From: Candidatus Kuenenia stuttgartensis
GTDB taxonomy: Bacteria > Planctomycetota > Brocadiia > Brocadiales > Brocadiaceae
DNA length: 32,000 nt
Reading direction: 5' to 3'
Assembly (NCBI RefSeq): GCF_900232105.1
Contig: NZ_LT934425.1
Span: 3,660,001 to 3,692,000 of the forward strand
Every line of letters begins with the position of its first letter. Position 1 is the first letter of the stretch. Both the position numbers and the translations under genes were made by a program. The notes beneath the pieces are model-generated. The model was not told where the DNA came from. It searched no databases and worked only from the letters and a program-made list of their open reading frames with translations. Positions 9,204-19,675 of this stretch are shown in pieces.

Positions 9204-9529
9204 AATTTATCTCCAATCTCCAATCTTTCAACGGCCATAAGCACTTGTTTCACTTGATATGCTTTAGCCTTTCCTTTATTATTCTGTATATTTATCCGCG
9301 GGTTATCCAGCCATGGTGTTTTATATACTCGATGACTGCTTCCCCTTTGAAGTGCGTCTCCAAAATAATTATCACAAACTGCGCAAAGATCATTGAATCT
9401 TACATTATTAGGGCTTTGGCGCATCTGTTCTAAAATATCTTTTATCTTGCTCCATTTTAAGATAGTATCATTAATGATATCATTGTCAAGGCTAGAATGT
9501 GATTGGGCATTTATATTGTTTTGACACAT
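9194..9529 (-). CDS. hicA: HicA-like toxin (start codon uncertain)
   Basis: The C-terminal part (FNDLCAVCDNYFG...GSSHRVYKTPW...INIQNNKGKAKAYQVKQVL) resembles the HicA family. It overlaps the downstream hicB by 10 nt. The ATG at 9529 lies inside the right box of attC-like site B. Confidence 0.6.
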   Translation of the reverse strand: MCQNNINAQSHSSLDNDIINDTILKWSKIKDILEQMRQSPNNVRFNDLCAVCDNYFGDALQRGSSHRVYKTPWLDNPRINIQNNKGKAKAYQVKQVLMAVERLEIGDKLWH

Positions 9530-9585
9530 AACGCCGAACTAAGCGCCGGCTGGTTTTTGCCGTCCGCTTGAGCGACTTGTTACGC
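9526..9585 (-). other. attC-like recombination site B (minus orientation)
   Basis: Read on the minus strand: GCGTAAC-aag-tcgctcaagcggacggc-aaaaa-ccagccggcgcttag-ttcggc-GTTATGT. Its left arm is nearly identical to that of site C (aacaagNcgctNcagcggacg). Confidence 0.6.
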
Positions 9586-10337: not shown

Positions 10338-11255
10338 TATCGCTGCACAAAGAGATAACCTTTAAAGGGGTGACATTTTTATCCTTAAATACCTATTTTT
10401 AGTACAGAAAAGAGTTGTTTAAGTAATTTTTGTTATGGCACGTGCAAATAGACATTATATCCCAAATTATGTTTGGCATATTACTCATAGATGCCATAAA
10501 AAAGAATTTCTTTTGAAATTTCTGAAAGATCGTAAGCGTTGGATGTACTGGCTGTTTGAAGCTAAAAAGAGATTTGGATTAAGGATATTAAACTATACTG
10601 TCACATCAAATCATATTCATCTATTGGTTATTGACAATGGTCGTGAGGTTATTCCGAAGAGTATCCAATTGGTAGCGGGGAGAACTGCACAGGAGTATAA
10701 TCAAAGAAAAAAGCGTAAGGGTGCATTTTGGGAAGACAGATATCACGCAACGGCAATAGAAACTGACATACATTTGATAAGATGTATGATGTATATTGAT
10801 TTGAATATGGTCAGGGCTGGTGTTGTAAAGCATCCGTGTGAATGGGCAATGAGTGGATATGATGAGATACAAAACCCACCGGATAGATACGCCTTAATAG
10901 ACATAAAAGGCTTGATTGAATTATGTGGGTTATCCAACAAGGAACAACTGAGGCATGAATATAAACAATGGGTAGAAGCTGCCATTAATGATAATGGCCT
11001 CAGGAGAGAGTCCTGTTGGACAGCAAGTATCGCAGTAGGGAGTAGGCGATTTGTAGAAGATACGAAGGTTAAGTTAGGTTTAAAAGCACATGGACGCAAG
11101 GTAGAGGAGGGTAACGATAAGTTTGTACTTAAAGAACCGATTGTTCCTTACAAGGCTCATTTAAGTGCCAAAAAAGATCTTCTAAGGCATGAAAACATGT
11201 ATTGTTGGGGGGGGAAACATAGTCAACGCAACAGGTTAGCTTGGTCCGACCCGAT
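10338..11255 (+). mobile_element. Y1-transposase (IS200-like / RAYT-type) repeat unit, left copy
   Basis: The 918 bp are co-linear with 17749-18665 at an offset of 7411. By eye I saw roughly ten substitutions plus one indel in a G-run. Confidence 0.85.
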
Positions 11256-11316
11256 TTACCAACCCCAAAGAGGGAGTTCAATCTCTCATCAGAAAAGTAG
11301 GGGACATTATACGTAA
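10435..11316 (+). CDS. IS200-like/REP-associated tyrosine (HUH, Y1) transposase; C-terminus altered by read-through
   Basis: HUH motif in TSNHIHLLV and the catalytic-Tyr helix motif MMYIDLNMVRAGVV. G8 here replaces GGGGGTG in the right copy, which removes the TGA stop. The ORF therefore runs on into group II intron-derived DNA. Confidence 0.8.
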   Translation: MARANRHYIPNYVWHITHRCHKKEFLLKFLKDRKRWMYWLFEAKKRFGLRILNYTVTSNHIHLLVIDNGREVIPKSIQLVAGRTAQEYNQRKKRKGAFWEDRYHATAIETDIHLIRCMMYIDLNMVRAGVVKHPCEWAMSGYDEIQNPPDRYALIDIKGLIELCGLSNKEQLRHEYKQWVEAAINDNGLRRESCWTASIAVGSRRFVEDTKVKLGLKAHGRKVEEGNDKFVLKEPIVPYKAHLSAKKDLLRHENMYCWGGKHSQRNRLAWSDPIYQPQRGSSISHQKSRGHYT

Positions 11317-11864
11317 ACATGTGAGTGCTCCTATTGAAGCCTTGTTTGAAAAGCTCAACTCTGTTCTACGAGGTTGGGCTAATTATCACAGGCATGTTGT
11401 CTCATCGGAAGCATTCAGCCGTGTTGACACCTATATCTTTGAACAACTATGGCGTATGGTAAGAAGAAGGCATCAGAACAAGACCAAAGGCTGGCTAATA
11501 AAAAAGTACTGGTCAGCCGCAGGAAAACATGTCTTTTCAATCTTACACAAGTAAAAAGAGAAGACTCGAATTTTAAAAATAATTCGGGTAAGCTCTATAG
11601 GGATAAAAAGGCATATAAAGATTAAAGCAGAAGCAACTCCTTACCTTTCTGAATACAGTAATTATTTCTGGAGAAGGAGAAACAGTAAGGAATCACGTCT
11701 GCTTGGTGCGCTATCACATCGCCAATATCAGGCAATGATAGCATCGAGGTAAAACAGTCGGGTTGTCCCACAAGGGCAGCTTATTGAAATGCTTGAGCTG
11801 TATGATGGGAAACTATCACGTACAGTTCTTAGGAGGGAATCGGGCAGCAATGCCCGTGACCTAT
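11256..11864 (+). mobile_element. 5'-truncated group II intron (3' part of the IEP ORF, then domains V and VI)
   Basis: Domain V at 11795-11828 (GAGCTGTATGATGGGAAACTATCACGTACAGTTC) is a 34-nt match to the GAGCCGTAT...GAAA...ACGTACGGTTC consensus, with the AGC triad and a GAAA loop. It is followed by a GNRA-capped hairpin (cgggca-gcaa-tgcccg) with a possible bulged A. The putative 3' end ...ctat is near 11864. Confidence 0.75.
11258..11752 (+). pseudogene. Group II intron reverse transcriptase/maturase, C-terminal remnant with an in-frame stop
   Basis: The frame reads ...TNPKEGVQSLIRKVGDIIRKHVSAPIEALFEKLNSVLRGWANYHRHVVSSEAF...LIKKYWSAAGKHVFSILHK*KEKTRILKIIRVSSIGIKRHIKIKAEATPYLSEYSNYFWRRR... 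The RGWANYH and RH-KIK---PY motifs are typical of the maturase/C-terminal region. A TAA at 11552-11554 interrupts the frame. Confidence 0.75.
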
Positions 11865-11923
11865 CCGGTGCGGCCAATTAAATTACGGCATAAATCAAAT
11901 CCAATAATCATAAGGATAAGAAT

Positions 11924-14017
11924 ATGAAGGCAAGCGAAACAAAGGTAGAAGACTTTTTATCATCAAACAAGACACAATTCATAATCCCTGTTTATCAAAG
12001 GAATTATGACTGGTCTATCAGTCAATGCAAACTGCTACTCGATGACATTCTCGAAGTTGGTACAAACAAGAAGATGAACGCCCATTTTATCGGCAGTATC
12101 GTTTATGTTCACGATGACGTATACACGGCATCAAGAATCAAGGAACTTACCGTCATTGATGGTCAGCAACGAGTTACAACCTTGACCCTGATTTATTTGG
12201 TATTACATCGTCTTGCACAGGAACTCAAAGAAGAAAAGCTTGTTAATGAAATCAGTGAAACGTATTTAATAAACAAGTTTGCTCCTGAAGAAGAAAAGCT
12301 GAAACTCCGGCCAACAGACAATAACGATAAAGCACTGAAATACCTTTTGCGCGGCGATGCAAATGAAGAATACTCTGATTTTTCAAAACTCATTGATAAC
12401 TTCAATTATTTCAAAGGCAGAATTACAGAAGATAACTATCAGATAGTATTGACTGGTTTATCAAAATTAATGTTCGTCGAAATTTCGCTTGACCGAGAAA
12501 GAGACGAGCCGCAGCGAATATTTGAGAGCCTTAATTCAACTGGCCTGGAACTTTCACAAGCTGACCTGATTCGCAACTATATTTTGATGGGTCTCAAACG
12601 AAGAGAGCAGAATAAGATTTATCAGAATTATTGGGAAGTAATTGAAAAACTTGCCAAGGATGAAATTCTTAATGTCAGCCGCGTTTCTGATTTCATCCGC
12701 GATTATTTAACAGTCGAAAATAATAATATTCCGAACAAAGGCAGAGTATATTTTGAATTCAAATCAAAGTATCCTACATCTACCCTTGAAGAATTGGAAT
12801 CAAACTTATCAGGAATTAAATCATTAGGAAAGCACTATAACAAGCTGATTAATCCGAAAAATGAACCGGATAAAGAAATAAGATTGCAACTCGAATATAT
12901 TAACCGCCTTGAAATTAATGTTGCCTATCCCTTTTTGATGAAGGTATATGATGATTACAGCAACTCCATAATTGACAAAGCAACATTCTTAAAGGTTTTA
13001 GATACAATCCAATCATTCACTTGGCGTCGTTTTATTGTTGGTCTCCCAACAAATGCTTTGAATAAAATATTTATGAATCTTTACGACAAGGTTGAGCGAG
13101 AGAATTATTTATATTCAATTCAAAAAGCTTTATTACAGCGGGCAGGAGTTCAAAGATATCCTAAAAATGAAGAGACCATAGATGCATTAAAAGTAAAAGA
13201 TGTTTACAACATAAAGGCTAAGAACAGAATATATTTACTTGAGCGGCTTGAAAATTATGACAACCGTGAACACGTCGCAATTGATGGAAATCCAGATATT
13301 ACAATTGAACATATCTTTCCGCAGAATCCTGATACCAAATGGAAAATTGAATTAGGTAATGATGAATATTCTTTCATTAAGGAAAATTATTTAAATACAA
13401 TCGGCAACCTTACCCTTTCCGGCAACAATGGAAAACTTGGCAATAAGCCATTCCTCGAAAAAAGAGATAAAGAAAACGATGGTTACAAAGATAGCAGGCT
13501 GTGGCTAAACAAATATCTGTCAGTCGCAGAGAAGTGGGACAGGGCGGAAATTGAAAGACGTTTTGGCATAATTGCAGAGAGATTCTTGAAAATATGGGAG
13601 CTTCCAACCATAGCTTTTGCTGAGGATAATGGCAATAATGAAGTTAATATATTTGAGGCAGAGGACCCAAAATTCAAGAAATTGGAGTATGCCATATTTC
13701 TGGATCAAAAACTTGAAATCAGGGCGGTGTCTCAGCTTTACGTTGAAGTATTCAAACAACTCTTTGAATTACAACCTGAAACATTCTTTACATCAGACAT
13801 AGGGCTGCGCATCGGCTTAACTAAAAATCCAGTCGAAGGAAGCCCCAGACAACCAATTGCCATTAACGACACGTATTTTATTGAAAGCAACTTAGACAAT
13901 ATAGGTAAGTTTGACAGGATTAAGCAGGCACTGACCTTGCTCAATCTTGAGGATGAATTAACAATTAAATATGCAAATGAAAACGCCGAACAAAAAAATC
14001 AACCCGACGCAGAATAG
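11924..14017 (+). CDS. DUF262 + DUF1524 (GmrSD/BrxU/SspE-like) nuclease-NTPase, putative type IV restriction/defence enzyme with ~170-aa C-terminal extension
   Basis: N-terminal motifs are IPVYQRNYDWSISQCKLLLDDI and VIDGQQRVTTL (DUF262 DGQQR). DUF1524 His-Me-like motifs are ITIEHIFPQNP and NTIGNLTLSGNNGKLGNKPF. Confidence 0.8.
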   Translation: MKASETKVEDFLSSNKTQFIIPVYQRNYDWSISQCKLLLDDILEVGTNKKMNAHFIGSIVYVHDDVYTASRIKELTVIDGQQRVTTLTLIYLVLHRLAQELKEEKLVNEISETYLINKFAPEEEKLKLRPTDNNDKALKYLLRGDANEEYSDFSKLIDNFNYFKGRITEDNYQIVLTGLSKLMFVEISLDRERDEPQRIFESLNSTGLELSQADLIRNYILMGLKRREQNKIYQNYWEVIEKLAKDEILNVSRVSDFIRDYLTVENNNIPNKGRVYFEFKSKYPTSTLEELESNLSGIKSLGKHYNKLINPKNEPDKEIRLQLEYINRLEINVAYPFLMKVYDDYSNSIIDKATFLKVLDTIQSFTWRRFIVGLPTNALNKIFMNLYDKVERENYLYSIQKALLQRAGVQRYPKNEETIDALKVKDVYNIKAKNRIYLLERLENYDNREHVAIDGNPDITIEHIFPQNPDTKWKIELGNDEYSFIKENYLNTIGNLTLSGNNGKLGNKPFLEKRDKENDGYKDSRLWLNKYLSVAEKWDRAEIERRFGIIAERFLKIWELPTIAFAEDNGNNEVNIFEAEDPKFKKLEYAIFLDQKLEIRAVSQLYVEVFKQLFELQPETFFTSDIGLRIGLTKNPVEGSPRQPIAINDTYFIESNLDNIGKFDRIKQALTLLNLEDELTIKYANENAEQKNQPDAE

Positions 14018-14072
14018 CGTCGGCGGTTTTTCCCGAAGTGGTTGCCTGCGCGGGTTATTTAAGTCGTTCTGC
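13985..14072 (+). other. attC-like recombination site F
   Basis: GCCGAAC-aaaaaaatc-AACCCGaCGCAG...CCTGCGCGGGTT-atttaagtc-GTTCTGC. The inner boxes pair over 11 bp with one bulged A. The right box is the exact complement of site C's left box. It overlaps the stop codon of the DUF262/DUF1524 gene. The internal hairpin ccgacgc-agaata-gcgtcgg followed by a T-run could double as a terminator. Confidence 0.6.
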
Positions 14073-14084
14073 TGATAAATAAAA

Positions 14085-14621
14085 ATGTCTCCATACACTA
14101 CATTTGATGATATCCGTTCGATTAATGAAAAAATTGATCGAAACGTAATTATTAAAGAAGCTTATAGCCGTCAGTATCCTAGTGTGTTTCTTTCACATTC
14201 TTCCGCTGATCATGAATCTTTGCCTGCTGTAATAAAAATACTCGAGAACCATGGTGGAAGAGTCTATATAGATGATGGTGATCCCAGGTTATCAGGAAAG
14301 GTAAACCCTAATACAGCCGAAGTCCTGCGTGAAACAATTGGTAAGTGTAGCAAATTGGTCGTATTAGTAACAACAAACACGAAAGACAGCCGCTGGGTGC
14401 CTTGGGAATTGGGTCTTGGAGATGGGAAAAAATTTCAAAGTAGCATAGCCATTTTCCCAGTCGTAAAGGATTCGTTGACAGAAAGCTGGCATGAGCAGGA
14501 ATATCTTGGATTATATAAAAGAATAGTGTGGTCAAAATTTAAAGGTAAAGATAAGAGTGAATGGATGGTTTGGGACCATAACGATAACACAGCCACTGGC
14601 TTGGGAGAATGGCTCCGTTAG
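14085..14621 (+). CDS. TIR-domain protein 1
   Basis: SVFLSHSSADHE (betaA-like), RVYIDD and KLVVLVTTNTKDSRWVPWELGLG (a W..E glutamate motif as in bacterial TIR NADases). 178 aa. Confidence 0.7.
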   Translation: MSPYTTFDDIRSINEKIDRNVIIKEAYSRQYPSVFLSHSSADHESLPAVIKILENHGGRVYIDDGDPRLSGKVNPNTAEVLRETIGKCSKLVVLVTTNTKDSRWVPWELGLGDGKKFQSSIAIFPVVKDSLTESWHEQEYLGLYKRIVWSKFKGKDKSEWMVWDHNDNTATGLGEWLR

Positions 14622-14636
14622 GGAAAGGTTCGCTAA

Positions 14637-15215
14637 ATGCAAAATTACGGCATATTATCTGGTCTACGCATCCCACCTAAGCATAAGGTTTTTATAAGTT
14701 ATCACCATGCCAATGATCAATGGGATAGGGATCGATTCGAAAATTTATTTAGTAATTATTATAGCGTTTTTATTTCAAAATCTGTCCAAATAGGTGAAAT
14801 TAGCGCATTCCTAAAAACAGATACCATTCGACAAAAAATCCGGGATGAATACCTCAGAGACAGCACGGTTACAGTAGTACTCATTGGTAAAGAAACATGG
14901 AAAAGAAAGAATGTTGACTGGGAAATTGGTGCGAGTCTAAGGCACACAATTTTAAATTCAAGATCTGGATTACTGGGAATTTTTTTGCCAGATCATCCTG
15001 ATTTTGGTCGGGATAAATATATACCTTACATAACCCCTCCTCGCCTTCATTATTGCGCCAAATGCGGTTATGCTACACTTCATGATTGGTCTGATGACCC
15101 AGCGATAGTTTCACAATGGATAGAAGGAGCGTTTAACCGCCGTTTTAAGGTTGATCCAGATAATTCATTTCCCTCTTTCATTAATAACAAATCGGGAGAA
15201 AGGTGGTCAGAATGA
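14637..15215 (+). CDS. TIR-like protein 2 (DUF1863/ThsB-like flavour)
   Basis: KVFISYHHANDQWDRDRF and STVTVVLIGKETWKRKNVDWEIGASL match the pattern I associate with ThsB-type TIR-like domains. Confidence 0.65.
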   Translation: MQNYGILSGLRIPPKHKVFISYHHANDQWDRDRFENLFSNYYSVFISKSVQIGEISAFLKTDTIRQKIRDEYLRDSTVTVVLIGKETWKRKNVDWEIGASLRHTILNSRSGLLGIFLPDHPDFGRDKYIPYITPPRLHYCAKCGYATLHDWSDDPAIVSQWIEGAFNRRFKVDPDNSFPSFINNKSGERWSE

Positions 15216-15685
15216 AATGGAAAGAATGGCTTGAAAATTGGAGTATGACAACCCTTAAAATAAATCCACCTTTTCTGGAAATGGAGTGGAAGCCTAAAGA
15301 TGAGGACAAAGATGCAGCTTGGGAGCTATATATTGAGCTTCTAACACGCATTACCACACAACCACTCCCCAAAGAACATGGCGATGAATCTACAGCACTT
15401 GATTCTATTCATTCCATATTCAACCTTACCAGAGAAGTTATCAAAAGGCGTGGTCGTCTCTGTATTGAATTTACTAAAATTGCGATTGTGATTCTTAACC
15501 AAAAAATTAGACCATTCACTGCAAAATGGCACAAACTGATGATAGACAAAGCTTTTGAGAATCCTACGAAATGCGCGGAGTTTAGGAAAGAACTAGAGGA
15601 GCTTCAAAAAATTTTACTAATATACACGAAAATGCTTGCAGATATGTCAGGGGTAGAGGATTTGACAGAACTTGAGAAACAATAA
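15212..15685 (+). CDS. Hypothetical all-alpha protein, unknown family, translationally coupled to TIR-like protein 2
   Basis: An ATGA start/stop overlap at 15212-15215. I prefer this ATG to the GTG at 15203. I see no TM segment and no recognisable catalytic motif. The sequence is helical-looking (AAWELYIELLTRITTQPL..., KCAEFRKELEELQKILLIYTKMLADM). Confidence 0.55.
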   Translation: MKWKEWLENWSMTTLKINPPFLEMEWKPKDEDKDAAWELYIELLTRITTQPLPKEHGDESTALDSIHSIFNLTREVIKRRGRLCIEFTKIAIVILNQKIRPFTAKWHKLMIDKAFENPTKCAEFRKELEELQKILLIYTKMLADMSGVEDLTELEKQ

Positions 15686-15697
15686 ATAAAACCCAAA

Positions 15698-16132
15698 ATG
15701 TCCAGTAATCAAAATAATTCAAGGTTTGTTTTTATTAGTCACAGTAGCCTCGATACTTGGATAGCGAAACAGATAGCTAAGGAGGTCGAACTATGTGGTG
15801 CAATTCCATTCTTAGATGAAGCAAATGTGAATATTGGAGACGAGTTTGAAGATAAAATATTGGAATTTTTGGATAAATCGCACTATTTGATAGTTTTATT
15901 TACCCCTTGGGCCTTAGAACGACCTTATGTATGGGCAGAGATAGGTGCTGCATGGAGCAATCGAATCCCAATAATAGTTGTTTTACATGGTATCACTTCA
16001 TCTGAACTTCAAAAACGCCCTGGAATCCCTGTATTTATTAAAAAACGAGACATAATTGAACTGAACGAAATCGATAAATTCTTTTTGCAATTAAAAAACA
16101 AAATACAAGAGTTTCAATCTGGTGTGCAATGA
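15698..16132 (+). CDS. TIR-domain protein 3
   Basis: RFVFISHSSLDTWIAKQIAKEV, AIPFLDE and YLIVLFTPWALERPYVWAEIGAAW. 144 aa. Confidence 0.7.
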   Translation: MSSNQNNSRFVFISHSSLDTWIAKQIAKEVELCGAIPFLDEANVNIGDEFEDKILEFLDKSHYLIVLFTPWALERPYVWAEIGAAWSNRIPIIVVLHGITSSELQKRPGIPVFIKKRDIIELNEIDKFFLQLKNKIQEFQSGVQ

Positions 16133-16545
16133 ATAAAAAAGTATTTATATCCTATTCAAGGGAAGATACCTCCGAAATAAGAGCTTTAGTTGACAATTTG
16201 AGTCAAATTAACCTTGATATTTGGTCAGATCAAAATATTTCTGCAGGTGATAACTGGGCTAACTTAATTGAAGAGAATCTTAGAAAAAGTGAAATTGTAC
16301 TTTTGTTCATATCTCCACGAGCACTGGCAAGTGAGTGGGTGATGATGGAGTTTGGTGCTGCTGTCGCTTTAAAGAAAAAAATCATTCCTGTGGTTCTTAA
16401 AGATACTCATATTCCCTCCTTCTTGTCAGAGCATAAATATATCAGGGCGAATAGTATTAATGAAGCTGCTGAAAAAATCAAAGAAACATTATGCAAAATA
16501 GCAGAACAAGACGCTTCAGCGGACGAGAAAAAGTCGCGCCGCTGA
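16129..16545 (+). CDS. TIR-domain protein 4
   Basis: KKVFISYSREDTSEIRALV, IWSDQNISAGDNW and IVLLFISPRALASEWVMMEFGAAVALKKKIIPVVL. An ATGA overlap links it to the preceding gene. Confidence 0.75.
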   Translation: MNKKVFISYSREDTSEIRALVDNLSQINLDIWSDQNISAGDNWANLIEENLRKSEIVLLFISPRALASEWVMMEFGAAVALKKKIIPVVLKDTHIPSFLSEHKYIRANSINEAAEKIKETLCKIAEQDASADEKKSRR

Positions 16546-16559
16546 GCTTTTTGTTAGGT
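16501..16559 (+). other. attC-like recombination site C
   Basis: GCAGAAC-aag-acgcttcagcggacg-agaaaaa-gtcgcgccgctgagc-ttttt-GTTAGGT. The arms pair with single-base bulges. It overlaps the last codons of TIR protein 4. Confidence 0.65.
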
Positions 16560-16572
16560 ATATATAGTAAAC

Positions 16573-17529
16573 ATGGATAAATCAATTAGAAAAAATGAGA
16601 TATGCGTTGTTGGATTACCACGCTGTGACTTCGTGTTTTCTTCAACTCGTAGTTGTTTCATAGCGTATGGCTTTGATACTAGTACACTGGAAATGAATAT
16701 CCTAAAAAGCCTACTAGAAGAGCGCGGCCTCATTGCTGAAGAAGCAGGTGGTACACTTGCTCCTGGTCAAAGTGCATTTTGCGCAAAAATTTGCTCGAAA
16801 ATTATTACATCTCAATTCTGTGTAGTTTTATTAAATCATGACTTAAGAAATGGCGTTGAGACTCCAAATGCAAACGTAAATATGGAATATGGGCTAATGC
16901 TAGGATTTAATAAATATGTAATCCCTTTTCAACGTGAGGGCCAGCATCTTCCCTTTAATGTCGCTGGCCTAGATACCGTAAAATACACAAATCAAAACTT
17001 TCGAGATAAAGCGATTATTGCATTAGAACAGGCAATCTCTGAAACGACACAGGAGTCAGTGCCACGGGACAATTCTGATCAAATAATCCAATTGTTTTTA
17101 ATGGAGAGAGGATTACTAGTTTCTGCGATAGATAGCGAAGGCGATAGAAACTTGTATCGCTTGGGTGATTCACTTGGATTTAACCTGCTCAATACATTCT
17201 CAGGTAACGAGTACGTATACTTTGGCAGATTTACTTCTCTTAGGCCAGAATCTGTCGTATGGCGATTAAGAAAACTTAATTCAGTAGTATCAGGCCGACG
17301 CAGCTCACTTCCTGGTAGAGTCGCGCAGGGTCTTATTACACAAGAACTACTACCTTTTGTAGATCGATTGTTCGAGACAATGAGTATTATGGTCATAGTA
17401 ACAAGTGATGCTGATAAAACAGTAATTACTGAACAACTACAAAGACAACCACTTGATTACTCTGTGGAGCTACTTACCGTCACGGAAATATTTAATGAGG
17501 TTAAAAGTGCAATACCAACTAATGCCTAA
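16573..17529 (+). CDS. Two-domain protein: N-terminal TIR / nucleoside 2-deoxyribosyltransferase / SLOG-like Rossmannoid domain plus C-terminal domain of unknown family
   Basis: CFIAYGFD (first strand), FCVVLLNHD and NANVNMEYGLMLGFNKYVIPF (an acidic residue-Gly...Lys-x-V-I motif as in NDT/TIR-like folds). I could not recognise the C-terminal ~150 aa. Confidence 0.5.
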   Translation: MDKSIRKNEICVVGLPRCDFVFSSTRSCFIAYGFDTSTLEMNILKSLLEERGLIAEEAGGTLAPGQSAFCAKICSKIITSQFCVVLLNHDLRNGVETPNANVNMEYGLMLGFNKYVIPFQREGQHLPFNVAGLDTVKYTNQNFRDKAIIALEQAISETTQESVPRDNSDQIIQLFLMERGLLVSAIDSEGDRNLYRLGDSLGFNLLNTFSGNEYVYFGRFTSLRPESVVWRLRKLNSVVSGRRSSLPGRVAQGLITQELLPFVDRLFETMSIMVIVTSDADKTVITEQLQRQPLDYSVELLTVTEIFNEVKSAIPTNA

Positions 17530-17583
17530 CAAGGCACTCCAGCCGACGCTAAAAAGCAGCGCGGCTGAGTTTGATCGTTAGTA
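17524..17583 (+). other. attC-like recombination site D
   Basis: GCCTAAC-aag-gcactccagccgacgc-taaaaa-gcagcgcggctgag-tttgatc-GTTAGTA. The left arm carries two extra (bulged) bases relative to the right arm. The stop codon of the 318-aa gene lies inside the left box. Confidence 0.65.
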
Positions 17584-17618
17584 TCAGTAACTATCAATAA
17601 AGTACCAGGAGATTAAAG

Positions 17619-17813
17619 ATGTTAAATACATTGTGGGGTGTTGTCAAAAAAGAAAAAATTGAGCTTCTGGAAAAGGCAAATATCCCTGAAGGGACAAGGG
17701 TTTTGGTAACTGTGTTGGAGATGGCAACGGGGTCGGACCATGATAAGTTATCGCTGCACAAAGAGATAACCTTTAAAGGGGTGACATTTTTATCCTTAAA
17801 TACCTATTTTTAG
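17619..17813 (+). pseudogene. Chimeric/disrupted DUF104-like antitoxin gene
   Basis: The first 33 codons (MLNTLWGVVKKEKIELLEKANIPEGTRVLVTVL) are nearly identical to the gene at 19508. The ORF then diverges and runs into the Y1-transposase repeat that starts at 17749. Confidence 0.6.
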
Positions 17814-18665
17814 TACAGAAAAGAGTTGTTTAAGTAATTTTTGTTATGGCACGTGCAAATAGACATTATATCCCAAATTATGTTTGGCATATTACTCATA
17901 GATGCCATAAGAAAGAATTTCTTTTGAAATTTCTGAAAGATCGTAAGCGTTGGGTGTACTGGCTGTTTGTAGCTAAAAAGAGATTTGGATTAAGGATATT
18001 AAACTATACTGTCACATCAAATCATATTCATCTATTGGTTATTGACAATGGTCGTGAGGTTATTCCGAAGAGTATCCAATTGGTAGCGGGGAGAACTGCA
18101 CAGGAGTATAATCAAGGAAAAAAGCGTAAGGGTGCATTTTGGGAAGACAGATATCACGCAACGGCAATAGAAACTGACATACATTTGATAAGATATATGA
18201 TGTATATTGATTTGAATATGGTCAGGGCTGGTGTTGTAAAGCATCCGTGTGAATGGGCAATGAGTGGATATGATGAGATACAAAACCCACCGGATAGATA
18301 CGCCTTAATAGACATAAAAGGCTTGATTGAATTATGTGGGTTATCCAACAAGGAACAACTGAGGCATGAATATAAACAATGGGTAGAAGCTGCCATTAAT
18401 GATAATGGCCTCAGGAGAGAGTTCTGTTGGACAGCAAGTATCGCAGTAGGGAGTAGGCGATTTGTAGAAGATACGAAGGTTAAGTTATGTTTAAAAGCAC
18501 ATGGACGCAAGGTAGAGGAGGGTAACGATAAGTTTGTACTTAAAGAACCGATTGTTCCTTACAATGCTCATTTAAGTGCCAAAAAAGATCTTCTAAGGCA
18601 TGAAAATATGTATTGTTGGGGGTGAAACATAGTCAACGCAACAGGTTAGCTTGGTCCGACCCGAT
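17749..18665 (+). mobile_element. Y1-transposase (IS200-like / RAYT-type) repeat unit, right copy
   Basis: Direct repeat of 10338-11255. Confidence 0.85.
17846..18625 (+). CDS. IS200-like/REP-associated tyrosine (HUH, Y1) transposase, 259 aa
   Basis: Same protein as 10435.. with seven amino-acid differences. It ends at a TGA that is lost in the left copy. Confidence 0.8.
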   Translation: MARANRHYIPNYVWHITHRCHKKEFLLKFLKDRKRWVYWLFVAKKRFGLRILNYTVTSNHIHLLVIDNGREVIPKSIQLVAGRTAQEYNQGKKRKGAFWEDRYHATAIETDIHLIRYMMYIDLNMVRAGVVKHPCEWAMSGYDEIQNPPDRYALIDIKGLIELCGLSNKEQLRHEYKQWVEAAINDNGLRREFCWTASIAVGSRRFVEDTKVKLCLKAHGRKVEEGNDKFVLKEPIVPYNAHLSAKKDLLRHENMYCWG

Positions 18666-18787
18666 CCAACAAAGAGACATAAGCGATGGTGTTTGAAGTG
18701 TTTATCAATATAGTACTTGCCATATCAAAGGCGTGTTATATGTACAATAAATCTGTATTCCGCATATTATGCGGATCAATCTAATCA

Positions 18788-19342: not shown

Positions 19343-19472
19343 TGCTAACCAGCGCATTCAGCCGACCAGCTACCCTTTTGCGGTTTTCTAGTTTTGTGGC
19401 TTCGTTCACCATCATCATGCAGGCCAACTTATGCGCTTCTAATCTGCTGTCGGCTGATGCTGTGCGTTAGTA
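19343..19472 (+). other. attC-like recombination site E (long form, ~130 bp)
   Basis: TGCTAAC-cag-cgcattcagccgaccagc ...(~75 nt)... gctgtcggctgatgctgtgc-GTTAGTA. The arms are complementary with bulges and homologous to those of site D. Confidence 0.55.
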
Positions 19473-19507
19473 TCAGTAACTATCAATAAAGTACCAGGAG
19501 ATTAAAG

Positions 19508-19675
19508 ATGTTAAATACATTGTGGGGTGTTGTCAAAAAAGAAAAAATTGAGCTTCTGGGAAAGGCAAATATCCCTGAAGGGACAAGGGTTTTGGTAACT
19601 GTGTTGCCTGACGATACTGGATTTACAGTTCTGGTTGAAAACAAGCCAAATCTCTTTGGATGCGATTTGGAATAA
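19508..19675 (+). CDS. DUF104/AF2212-like small antitoxin (55 aa; below the ORF-track size cut-off)
   Basis: My translation: MLNTLWGVVKKEKIELLGKANIPEGTRVLVTVLPDDTGFTVLVENKPNLFGCDLE. The G-x-I-x-LL...PEGT-V-V-V pattern is typical of this antitoxin family. It lies directly upstream of a MazF-like gene. Confidence 0.6.
   Translation: MLNTLWGVVKKEKIELLGKANIPEGTRVLVTVLPDDTGFTVLVENKPNLFGCDLE

Follow-up and report, generated by a model that had tools for sequence, protein, structure and literature searches.

The gene for the protein that we call P0001 lies in a stretch of 32,000 nucleotides from Candidatus Kuenenia stuttgartensis (Planctomycetota; contig NZ_LT934425.1, positions 3,660,001 to 3,692,000 of the forward strand), which we refer to as the window and whose numbering we use for all features within it. 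The open reading frame (ORF) occupies 16573..17529 on the plus strand and encodes 318 amino acids, arranged as a Cys-rich domain of predicted TIR type (residues 1-160, 16573..17052) followed by a domain with a predicted restriction-endonuclease-like fold (residues 161-318, 17053..17526). Two attC-like sites on the same strand delimit it: site C (16501..16559), which is the 3' site of a cassette carrying four TIR genes and the upstream boundary of the P0001 cassette, and site D (17524..17583), the P0001 cassette's own 3' recombination site. The fourth TIR gene, whose last codons are overlapped by site C, stops at 16545, and P0001 starts 27 nt further downstream on the same strand; its TAA stop sits within the left box (GCCTAAC) of site D. 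The ORF is undisrupted, and the genome, a single contig of 4.41 Mb, contains one copy of it; the ATG start is supported by the fact that just 5 codons are open upstream and that the homologues share the N-terminal start MDK.IR. A pseudogene was considered and rejected, since the ORF is intact and conserved. On balance, we lean towards reading P0001 as a self-contained two-domain sensor-effector, carried as a single-gene integron cassette, and as a candidate phage-defence gene.

The N-terminal half is, as judged from its sequence, a TIR-superfamily domain of the Cap12/PycTIR kind, although a divergent one. Its PF10137 match (CAP12/PycTIR TIR; E 0.0068, profile positions 3-118 of 119) is the sole Pfam match of P0001, and the Pfam scan gave no match to PF05014. 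The same family is matched by 25 of the 26 aligned homologues, with a best E of 1e-7, many homologues already carry the PF10137 label in precomputed annotation, and three distant relatives with other C termini (P0196, P0200 and P0216) score 24.7-27.4 bits, at or near the family's cut-off. PADLOC and NCBIfam returned only weak matches to Cap12 effectors, over residues 94-158. When an alignment of 53 N domains was compared by hhalign with six canonical representatives of PF10137 from same-phylum genomes, the relationship was recovered at 89.6% probability (E 1.9e-6, 110 columns); against the fourth TIR protein of the window the probability was 73.9%. Residues 1-27 form an extension that precedes the TIR core and stays outside the PF10137 alignment. 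The earlier note, made from the DNA alone, had likened this half to nucleoside 2-deoxyribosyltransferase, TIR-like and SLOG domains; the PF10137 homology bears out the TIR/deoxyribosyltransferase superfamily and narrows it to the Cap12/PycTIR branch.

Structural comparison points the same way. In the full-length model, the N half alternates strands and helices, the pattern that had been predicted from the letters, albeit at low confidence. A Foldseek search with the low-confidence model of the N domain placed the TIR-STING structure 9lmq at E 2.5e-4 and also retrieved RPP1, SARM1 and MyD88, and VIA gave Z scores of 8.0-8.6 against the TIR domains of RPS4, TIRAP, RPP1 and SfSTING, so that the best solved-structure matches of this domain are TIR-STING (that is, Cap12) and other TIR domains. 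At the level of sequence, searches with the whole of P0001 and with the family profiles against the sequences of solved structures gave no significant match.

The motif NVNMEYGLMLGFNKYVIPF (residues 101-119, 16873..16929), to which the earlier note had drawn attention, is almost invariant across the family and does prove to carry a catalytic-type glutamate, Glu105 (codon 16885-16887), along with Asn101. Glu105 is conserved in at least 90% of the sequences and Asn101 is nearly invariant; in the hhalign alignments, the former falls opposite both the invariant glutamate of PF10137 and the glutamate of the fourth TIR protein of the window, and the latter opposite the invariant asparagine of the PF10137 family. 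In SfSTING, E84 on helix alpha-C is catalytic, N80 contacts the ribose/phosphate and R78 the phosphate of the substrate, with D110 supplied in trans by the partner subunit to complete the active site (PMC9402430). In the hhalign register, which is a profile-based and not a structural mapping, Glu105 corresponds to E84 and N101 to N80. A further feature sets the family apart: Cys11, Cys18, Cys70, Cys74 and Cys83 are invariant in 53 of 53 diverse N domains, and the six canonical PF10137 domains have none of the five. Cys11 and Cys18 are located in the N-terminal extension of about 27 residues. A metal site or a redox switch is a plausible role for these clade-specific cysteines, given their pattern of conservation.

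The C-terminal half had been called unrecognisable in the earlier note, a description that holds for sequence families and gives way at the level of the modelled fold. Its sequence matched nothing in Pfam, PADLOC, NCBIfam or the PDB, a Pfam scan of 60 C domains produced noise with no consistent match and no nuclease family, and a C-domain profile matched no PDB sequence. Modelled alone from the 60-sequence alignment, the domain reached a predicted local distance difference test score (pLDDT) of 94.3 and a predicted template modelling score (pTM) of 0.87. The top VIA rows for this model were mostly proteins with a restriction-endonuclease fold, at Z 5.0-6.5 (AF1548, the LlaBIII nuclease domain, CdiA-CT, N.BspD6I, FokI, XisH, HamA, EcoO109I, Can2, PaqCI, BglII, MspJI and Shedu), and the matches in AlphaFold DB and the Atlas were Mrr, RmuC, DUF4263, Shedu, AlwI and Mrr_cat clusters, as well as FokI-type models. 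The catalytic signature of such enzymes was then sought on the two conserved strands, 204-208 and 214-219. The conserved residues there (G202, F203, L205, Y214, G218 and F220) are hydrophobic or glycine only, with F203, G218 and F220 alone nearly invariant in the region expected to hold the nuclease motif, and no conserved acidic residue or lysine of a D...(D/E)xK motif was found on these strands. The conserved charges of the domain, among them R224, R231, R242, R249 and K282, lie on helices or in loops. From the model, we read this domain as a degenerate Mrr/PD-(D/E)xK-type fold that would serve binding or assembly, as a putative sensor or oligomerisation module, rather than cutting. An assignment as a STING, SAVED, CARF or cyclic-nucleotide (cNMP)-binding domain was also considered and rejected, as no such sequence or fold match was found.

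The separate cassette bounded by sites C and D that the earlier note had proposed is confirmed by covarying stems and by a covariance model. Both sites fold better than shuffled sequences (z about -4.4) and align with six further sites, namely sites A and B, which lie in the window in reverse orientation, and four sites elsewhere in the genome. All eight have a common YAAC left box and GTTA right box, in the arrangement YAAC-spacer-CAGCSGAC...GCSGCTGA-spacer-GTTA. Aligned on a structure that we specified, the eight sites have 93.8% of cells paired and compensatory double changes in 7 of 16 pairs; none of 500 shuffles equalled the observed covariation score, which collapses when the register is slid. 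The covariance model R1, built from the eight sites, scores sites C and D at 70 and 72 bits, both being members of its training set, and it recovers site F, which was absent from that set, at E 1.4e-7. R1 replaced a simple detector based on a regular expression and folding, which was too noisy genome-wide, where it showed no clustering of sites, and lacked sensitivity around homologues, failing to detect even site C.

With R1, attC-like sites were found beside homologues of P0001 or in adjoining cassette-like arrays at six loci, which include genomes of Omnitrophota, Rokubacteria, Methylomirabilota and Deltaproteobacteria. The site is directly 3' of the homologue in an Omnitrophota genome (L044, E 4e-6), directly 5' in genomes of Rokubacteria (L064) and Methylomirabilota (L023), 3' of the homologue at L040, and part of an array at L001 and L005. 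The Omnitrophota site (L044:8955-9029) follows a homologue with 47% amino acid identity; its left half, TCCTAACAAGGCAATCCAG, is almost identical to the left half of site D, GCCTAACAAGGCACTCCAG, and there as in the window the stop codon lies within the left box of the attC site. The likeness could reflect shared cassette ancestry or convergence on the attC consensus.

The genome contains one complete integron integrase (genome positions 2802527-2803486; TIGR02249, 411 bits), and the search for others returned only sub-cut-off matches, which are numerous and spread over the chromosome (1541392, 3777159, 4384479-4386974 and others). As this sole complete intI gene is about 870 kb from the window, the array has no integrase of its own nearby, and it resembles a cluster of attC sites lacking an integrase. 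Solitary attC-like sites of the same type occur at genome positions 2622448, 3326585, 4177606 and 4381703; together with the scattered integrase matches, they suggest that past integron activity was spread across the genome.

Recombination has also left traces just downstream of P0001. The next cassette occurs twice, its copies beginning at 17577 and 19466, and the two cassettes open with the same stretch of about 140 bp (17562-17717 and 19451-19606, 96% identical), starting from the right box, GTTAGTA, of site D and of site E. In contigs of the public runs X2 and X4, a loose end at 17576 carries the sequence of site E, and from 17577 onwards the second copy of the next cassette has the same sequence. 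The position of this loose end fits the GTT crossover point, and the shared cassette start and the site E loose end suggest that the cassette was duplicated by attC recombination.

P0001 belongs to a family with a patchy distribution over more than 15 phyla. A word-indexed search returned 727 homologues, most of them 310-320 amino acids long, 55-88% identical and either unlabelled or annotated as "TIR domain-containing" or as a "predicted nucleotide-binding protein with TIR-like domain". When 1.84 billion cluster representatives were searched exhaustively with phmmer, 278 matches (representatives at 50% identity) emerged, including distant proteins that share residues 1-160 alone and carry different partner regions; P0213 and P0237 have the shared domain at the C terminus of the protein. 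Scanning one genome per species yielded 52 loci, distributed over Proteobacteria (alpha, beta, gamma and delta), Planctomycetota, Acidobacteriota, Nitrospirota, Bacteroidota, Ignavibacteria, Omnitrophota, Zixibacteria, Cloacimonadota, Verrucomicrobiota, Methylomirabilota, Rokubacteria, Hydrogenedentota and Armatimonadota. Closer to home, a search of 39 related genomes turned up a full-length copy in 2, at 55-59% identity, and in none of the three genomes of the same genus that were searched. We found no paper on this family, or on a fusion of TIR and Mrr-like domains, in the literature searched.

The two domains evolve at different rates. Pairwise identity over the same 26 proteins averages 75% for the N domain, with a minimum of 66%, and 43% for the C domain, and across phyla the N domain remains 66-80% identical. 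This asymmetry, and the occurrence of the N domain with unrelated partners, supports a division of the protein into effector and sensor. The guanine-plus-cytosine (GC) content of the gene tracks that of its host (r = 0.72) and is on average 9 points below that of the flanks, with a gap of more than 20 points at several loci. Third-codon-position GC ranges from 0.18 to 0.86 among the homologues, and the conservation of the protein therefore reflects constraint and not recent transfer alone. The patchy presence in relatives, the low GC content relative to the flanks and the attC-like sites support an accessory and mobile gene. Some copies are split into two ORFs or contain an internal stop (L051, L057, L061, L062, L063, L065, L067, L068 and G030:C14:53749-54696), which could represent real gene decay in some lineages or assembly errors in long-read metagenomes. 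The closest homologue on a long contig (P0003, 77% identical, 350 amino acids, L005:8001-9053) has a frame that runs about 32 codons past the usual end and belongs to an array of small genes in the same orientation, among them ParE and BrnT, that has an attC-like site at 9505-9562.

Does P0001 work with the four TIR genes that precede it? We surveyed 6 kb on each side of the 52 homologue loci, or 1,992 flanking ORFs. The recurrent clusters consisted of the P0001 gene itself and of antisense shadow ORFs within it, and the best real neighbour family was present in 4 loci. Searches by phmmer with TIR proteins 1-4, the helical protein and the GmrSD-like restriction protein of the window found no match among the 1,992 ORFs at E <=0.01. 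Pfam and PADLOC scans of the 97 nearest flanking ORFs showed each family in at most 2-3 of them and no TIR family among the commonest, and no cyclase gene recurred near homologues in the 52 loci. Four annotated metagenomic contexts agree, showing neither a TIR gene nor a recurrent neighbour. Since no neighbour is conserved across the 52 loci or these four contexts, we consider the gene autonomous and regard cassette stacking as the best explanation of its place behind the four-TIR cassette. A contig from a metatranscriptome library (16171-17562, 100% identical) spans the junction between the fourth TIR gene and P0001 at a depth like that of the TIR genes, and is compatible with read-through transcription or DNA carry-over. 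More generally, neighbours within a cassette array should not be taken as an operon when such regions are annotated.

Our working model is that the N-terminal Cap12/PycTIR-class TIR domain is the effector, with Glu105 as its catalytic residue and, by homology, NAD+ as its most likely substrate, or else a related nucleotide. The nuclease-like, apparently catalytically dead C-terminal domain would be the regulator, holding the enzyme off until a trigger, for instance a phage protein or nucleic acid, is recognised; alternatively, it may mediate the oligomerisation that TIR enzymes need to form their active site. Once activated, the enzyme would exhaust NAD+ or a related nucleotide, and the infection would be aborted. 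Of the three options put forward by the earlier note, which were a fifth TIR-type enzyme, a ThsA-like sensor-effector serving the four-TIR cassette and an independent single-gene defence cassette, the last appears to fit best on the comparative data.

Several observations weigh against this model. The PF10137 score of P0001, 16.8 bits, is under the gathering cut-off of 24.7 bits. In the hhalign register, the position of SfSTING R78 is taken by N99, which is nearly invariant, and that of D110 by N129, which is invariant in the close family, and because asparagine replaces both residues, the substrate or the chemistry may differ from that of SfSTING. The pLDDT of the N-domain model ranges from 42 to 85 and is poor precisely at the conserved cysteine and glutamate segments, the former being modelled below 50. 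Foldseek, which recovered TIR-STING with the N half, found nothing significant in the PDB with the C half (best E 0.05), and the evidence for a restriction-endonuclease fold is modest (Z <=6.5, Foldseek PDB E >=0.05). For an immune protein, it is unusual that the N domain keeps 75% identity across phyla. Finally, many of the 97 nearest ORFs are housekeeping genes, and matches to defence or toxin-antitoxin families are scattered among them. Guilt by association with defence is accordingly weak, because the immediate neighbours outside the window are mostly housekeeping genes, and we do not claim an enrichment of defence islands around the homologues.

Some of these observations would sit well with a metabolic or detoxifying enzyme, that is, an N-glycosidase of the nucleoside 2-deoxyribosyltransferase, MilB or LOG type that acts on a nucleotide or a modified nucleotide and has no immune role. 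TIR domains are themselves hydrolases of N-glycosidic bonds. Besides the extreme conservation of the N domain and the frequent housekeeping neighbours, such an enzyme could account for the weak match of the N-domain profile across the catalytic motif to BlsM and to the CMP N-glycosidase 4jen (E 0.049), which places Glu105 opposite the glutamate of PGTHIEIG and concerns the Glu motif only, for the fold matches of the N domain to MilB and RCL (Z 6.9-7.9, MilB being at 7.9) and for the presence of Nuc_deoxyrib_tr families among the Atlas neighbours. We nevertheless think it improbable: the match to PF10137 is far stronger than that to any family of the deoxyribosyltransferase type, the second domain evolves fast, no pathway gene is linked, the distribution is patchy, the GC content is low relative to the flanks, and the gene is linked to integron cassettes.

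It is more improbable still that the roles of the two domains are reversed, with the C domain as an active nuclease and toxic effector and the TIR-like domain in charge of regulation or assembly. The restriction-endonuclease-like fold would allow it, and the nearest Atlas clusters by language-model features include proteins of about 290-310 amino acids that combine TIR_2 or Nuc_deoxyrib_tr with Mrr_cat, at scores below 0.8 that make them a lead only. Yet the strands expected to carry D...(D/E)xK have no conserved acidic residue or lysine, no Pfam nuclease family is matched, and the catalytic-type glutamate and most of the invariant residues are in the N domain.

That P0001 is a ThsA-like sensor-effector, or a fifth subunit, of one Thoeris-like system with the adjacent TIR genes seems very unlikely, since the shared strand, the 27-nt spacing, the junction-spanning contig and the many new Thoeris effectors still emerging (10.64898/2025.12.03.692087) stand against an attC site between the two cassettes, an adjacency that comes from array recombination and not from function, an RNA-library contig that could be DNA carry-over or read-through, the lack by sequence of a SLOG, Macro or other known signal-binding domain, and a co-occurrence with TIR genes that the earlier note had offered as a check and that was seen in none of the 52 loci and none of the four metagenomic contexts.

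Returning to the two-domain sensor-effector, P0001 is best placed by comparison with known systems. The TIR-STING protein Cap12 (SfSTING) and PycTIR are PF10137 TIR effectors of CBASS and Pycsar, respectively, and the TIR domain of P0001 is homologous to theirs. P0001 shares with Cap12 the catalytic glutamate and the neighbouring asparagine, a length of about 310 amino acids and the layout of an N-terminal TIR domain and a C-terminal regulatory one. The NADase activity of SfSTING is switched on by ligand-driven filament formation (PMC9402430). P0001 lacks a STING or other cyclic-nucleotide-binding domain, and none of the loci has a cyclase gene close by; its C domain is restriction-endonuclease-like instead, and the five invariant cysteines and the N-terminal extension are missing from the six canonical PF10137 domains compared. 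SpbK, encoded by the Bacillus subtilis element ICEBs1, is a single TIR protein with a phage-triggered NADase activity that binds the phage protein YonE (PMC12847820, PMC11984713). As a stand-alone TIR protein on a mobile element, it provides our working model for P0001, although the similarity is at the level of the TIR clan only and the non-TIR parts differ; the PADLOC spbK model matched the neighbouring TIR proteins of the window weakly and P0001 not at all. With Thoeris, P0001 shares the chemistry of the TIR superfamily and, in the window, adjacency to ThsB-like TIR genes, but no conserved pairing with TIR genes. The C domain has the overall fold of Mrr and PD-(D/E)xK domains such as those of AF1548, LlaBIII, FokI (cleavage domain), Can2 and Shedu, and departs from them in lacking the signature residues and a sequence-family match, and in its modest Z scores.

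Defence cassettes documented so far are mostly from Vibrio and from mobile integrons. Like them, P0001 is a promoterless single ORF that has its own attC site and lies in a co-oriented array, but this array has no adjacent integrase and is broken by insertions of a Y1 transposase (RAYT-type) and of IS630 (DDE_3). That integron cassettes serve as stores of phage-defence genes is documented (Kieffer 2025, Darracq 2025 and Getz 2025, cited in 10.64898/2026.03.17.712381), and P0001 would extend this idea to environmental phyla, here the Planctomycetota and probably an anammox bacterium. A systematic survey of Thoeris and TIR defence set stand-alone TIR proteins aside (10.64898/2025.12.03.692087), and the P0001 family may therefore be an unexamined branch of TIR immunity. 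The combination of a near-frozen catalytic domain, five invariant cysteines and a variable, nuclease-derived second domain leads us to raise, tentatively and as a possibility that we would not yet call probable, an undescribed type of single-protein immune sensor, in which a Cap12-type TIR domain with an altered active site is gated by a cysteine cluster and a degenerate Mrr-like domain and which integrons have spread over more than 15 phyla. If so, the cysteines would act as a zinc or redox switch, the Mrr-like domain would recognise phage nucleic acid or protein, and the asparagines in place of the SfSTING arginine and aspartate might change the substrate or the product.

The surroundings of P0001 in the window are rich in defence genes, with a GmrSD-type restriction enzyme, the four TIR genes and toxin-antitoxin fragments. 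The GmrSD-type (DUF262/DUF1524) type IV restriction enzyme, encoded at 11924-14017, has 697 amino acids, strong PADLOC matches (Orf5, 478 bits) and a C-terminal extension of about 140 amino acids past the matched region, and the 3' end of its gene overlaps the attC-like site F. Between the second and third TIR genes, an ORF of 160 amino acids (15203-15685) has no Pfam, PADLOC or NCBIfam match. Two near-identical direct copies (10338-11262 and 17749-18672, 99% over 300 nt) of a Y1/IS200-like, REP-associated-type transposase gene bracket the block 11263-17748, which comprises the GmrSD gene, the four-TIR cassette and P0001, and the second copy splits the cassette downstream of site D. The window, whose GC content is about 40%, also encodes multi-haem cytochromes.

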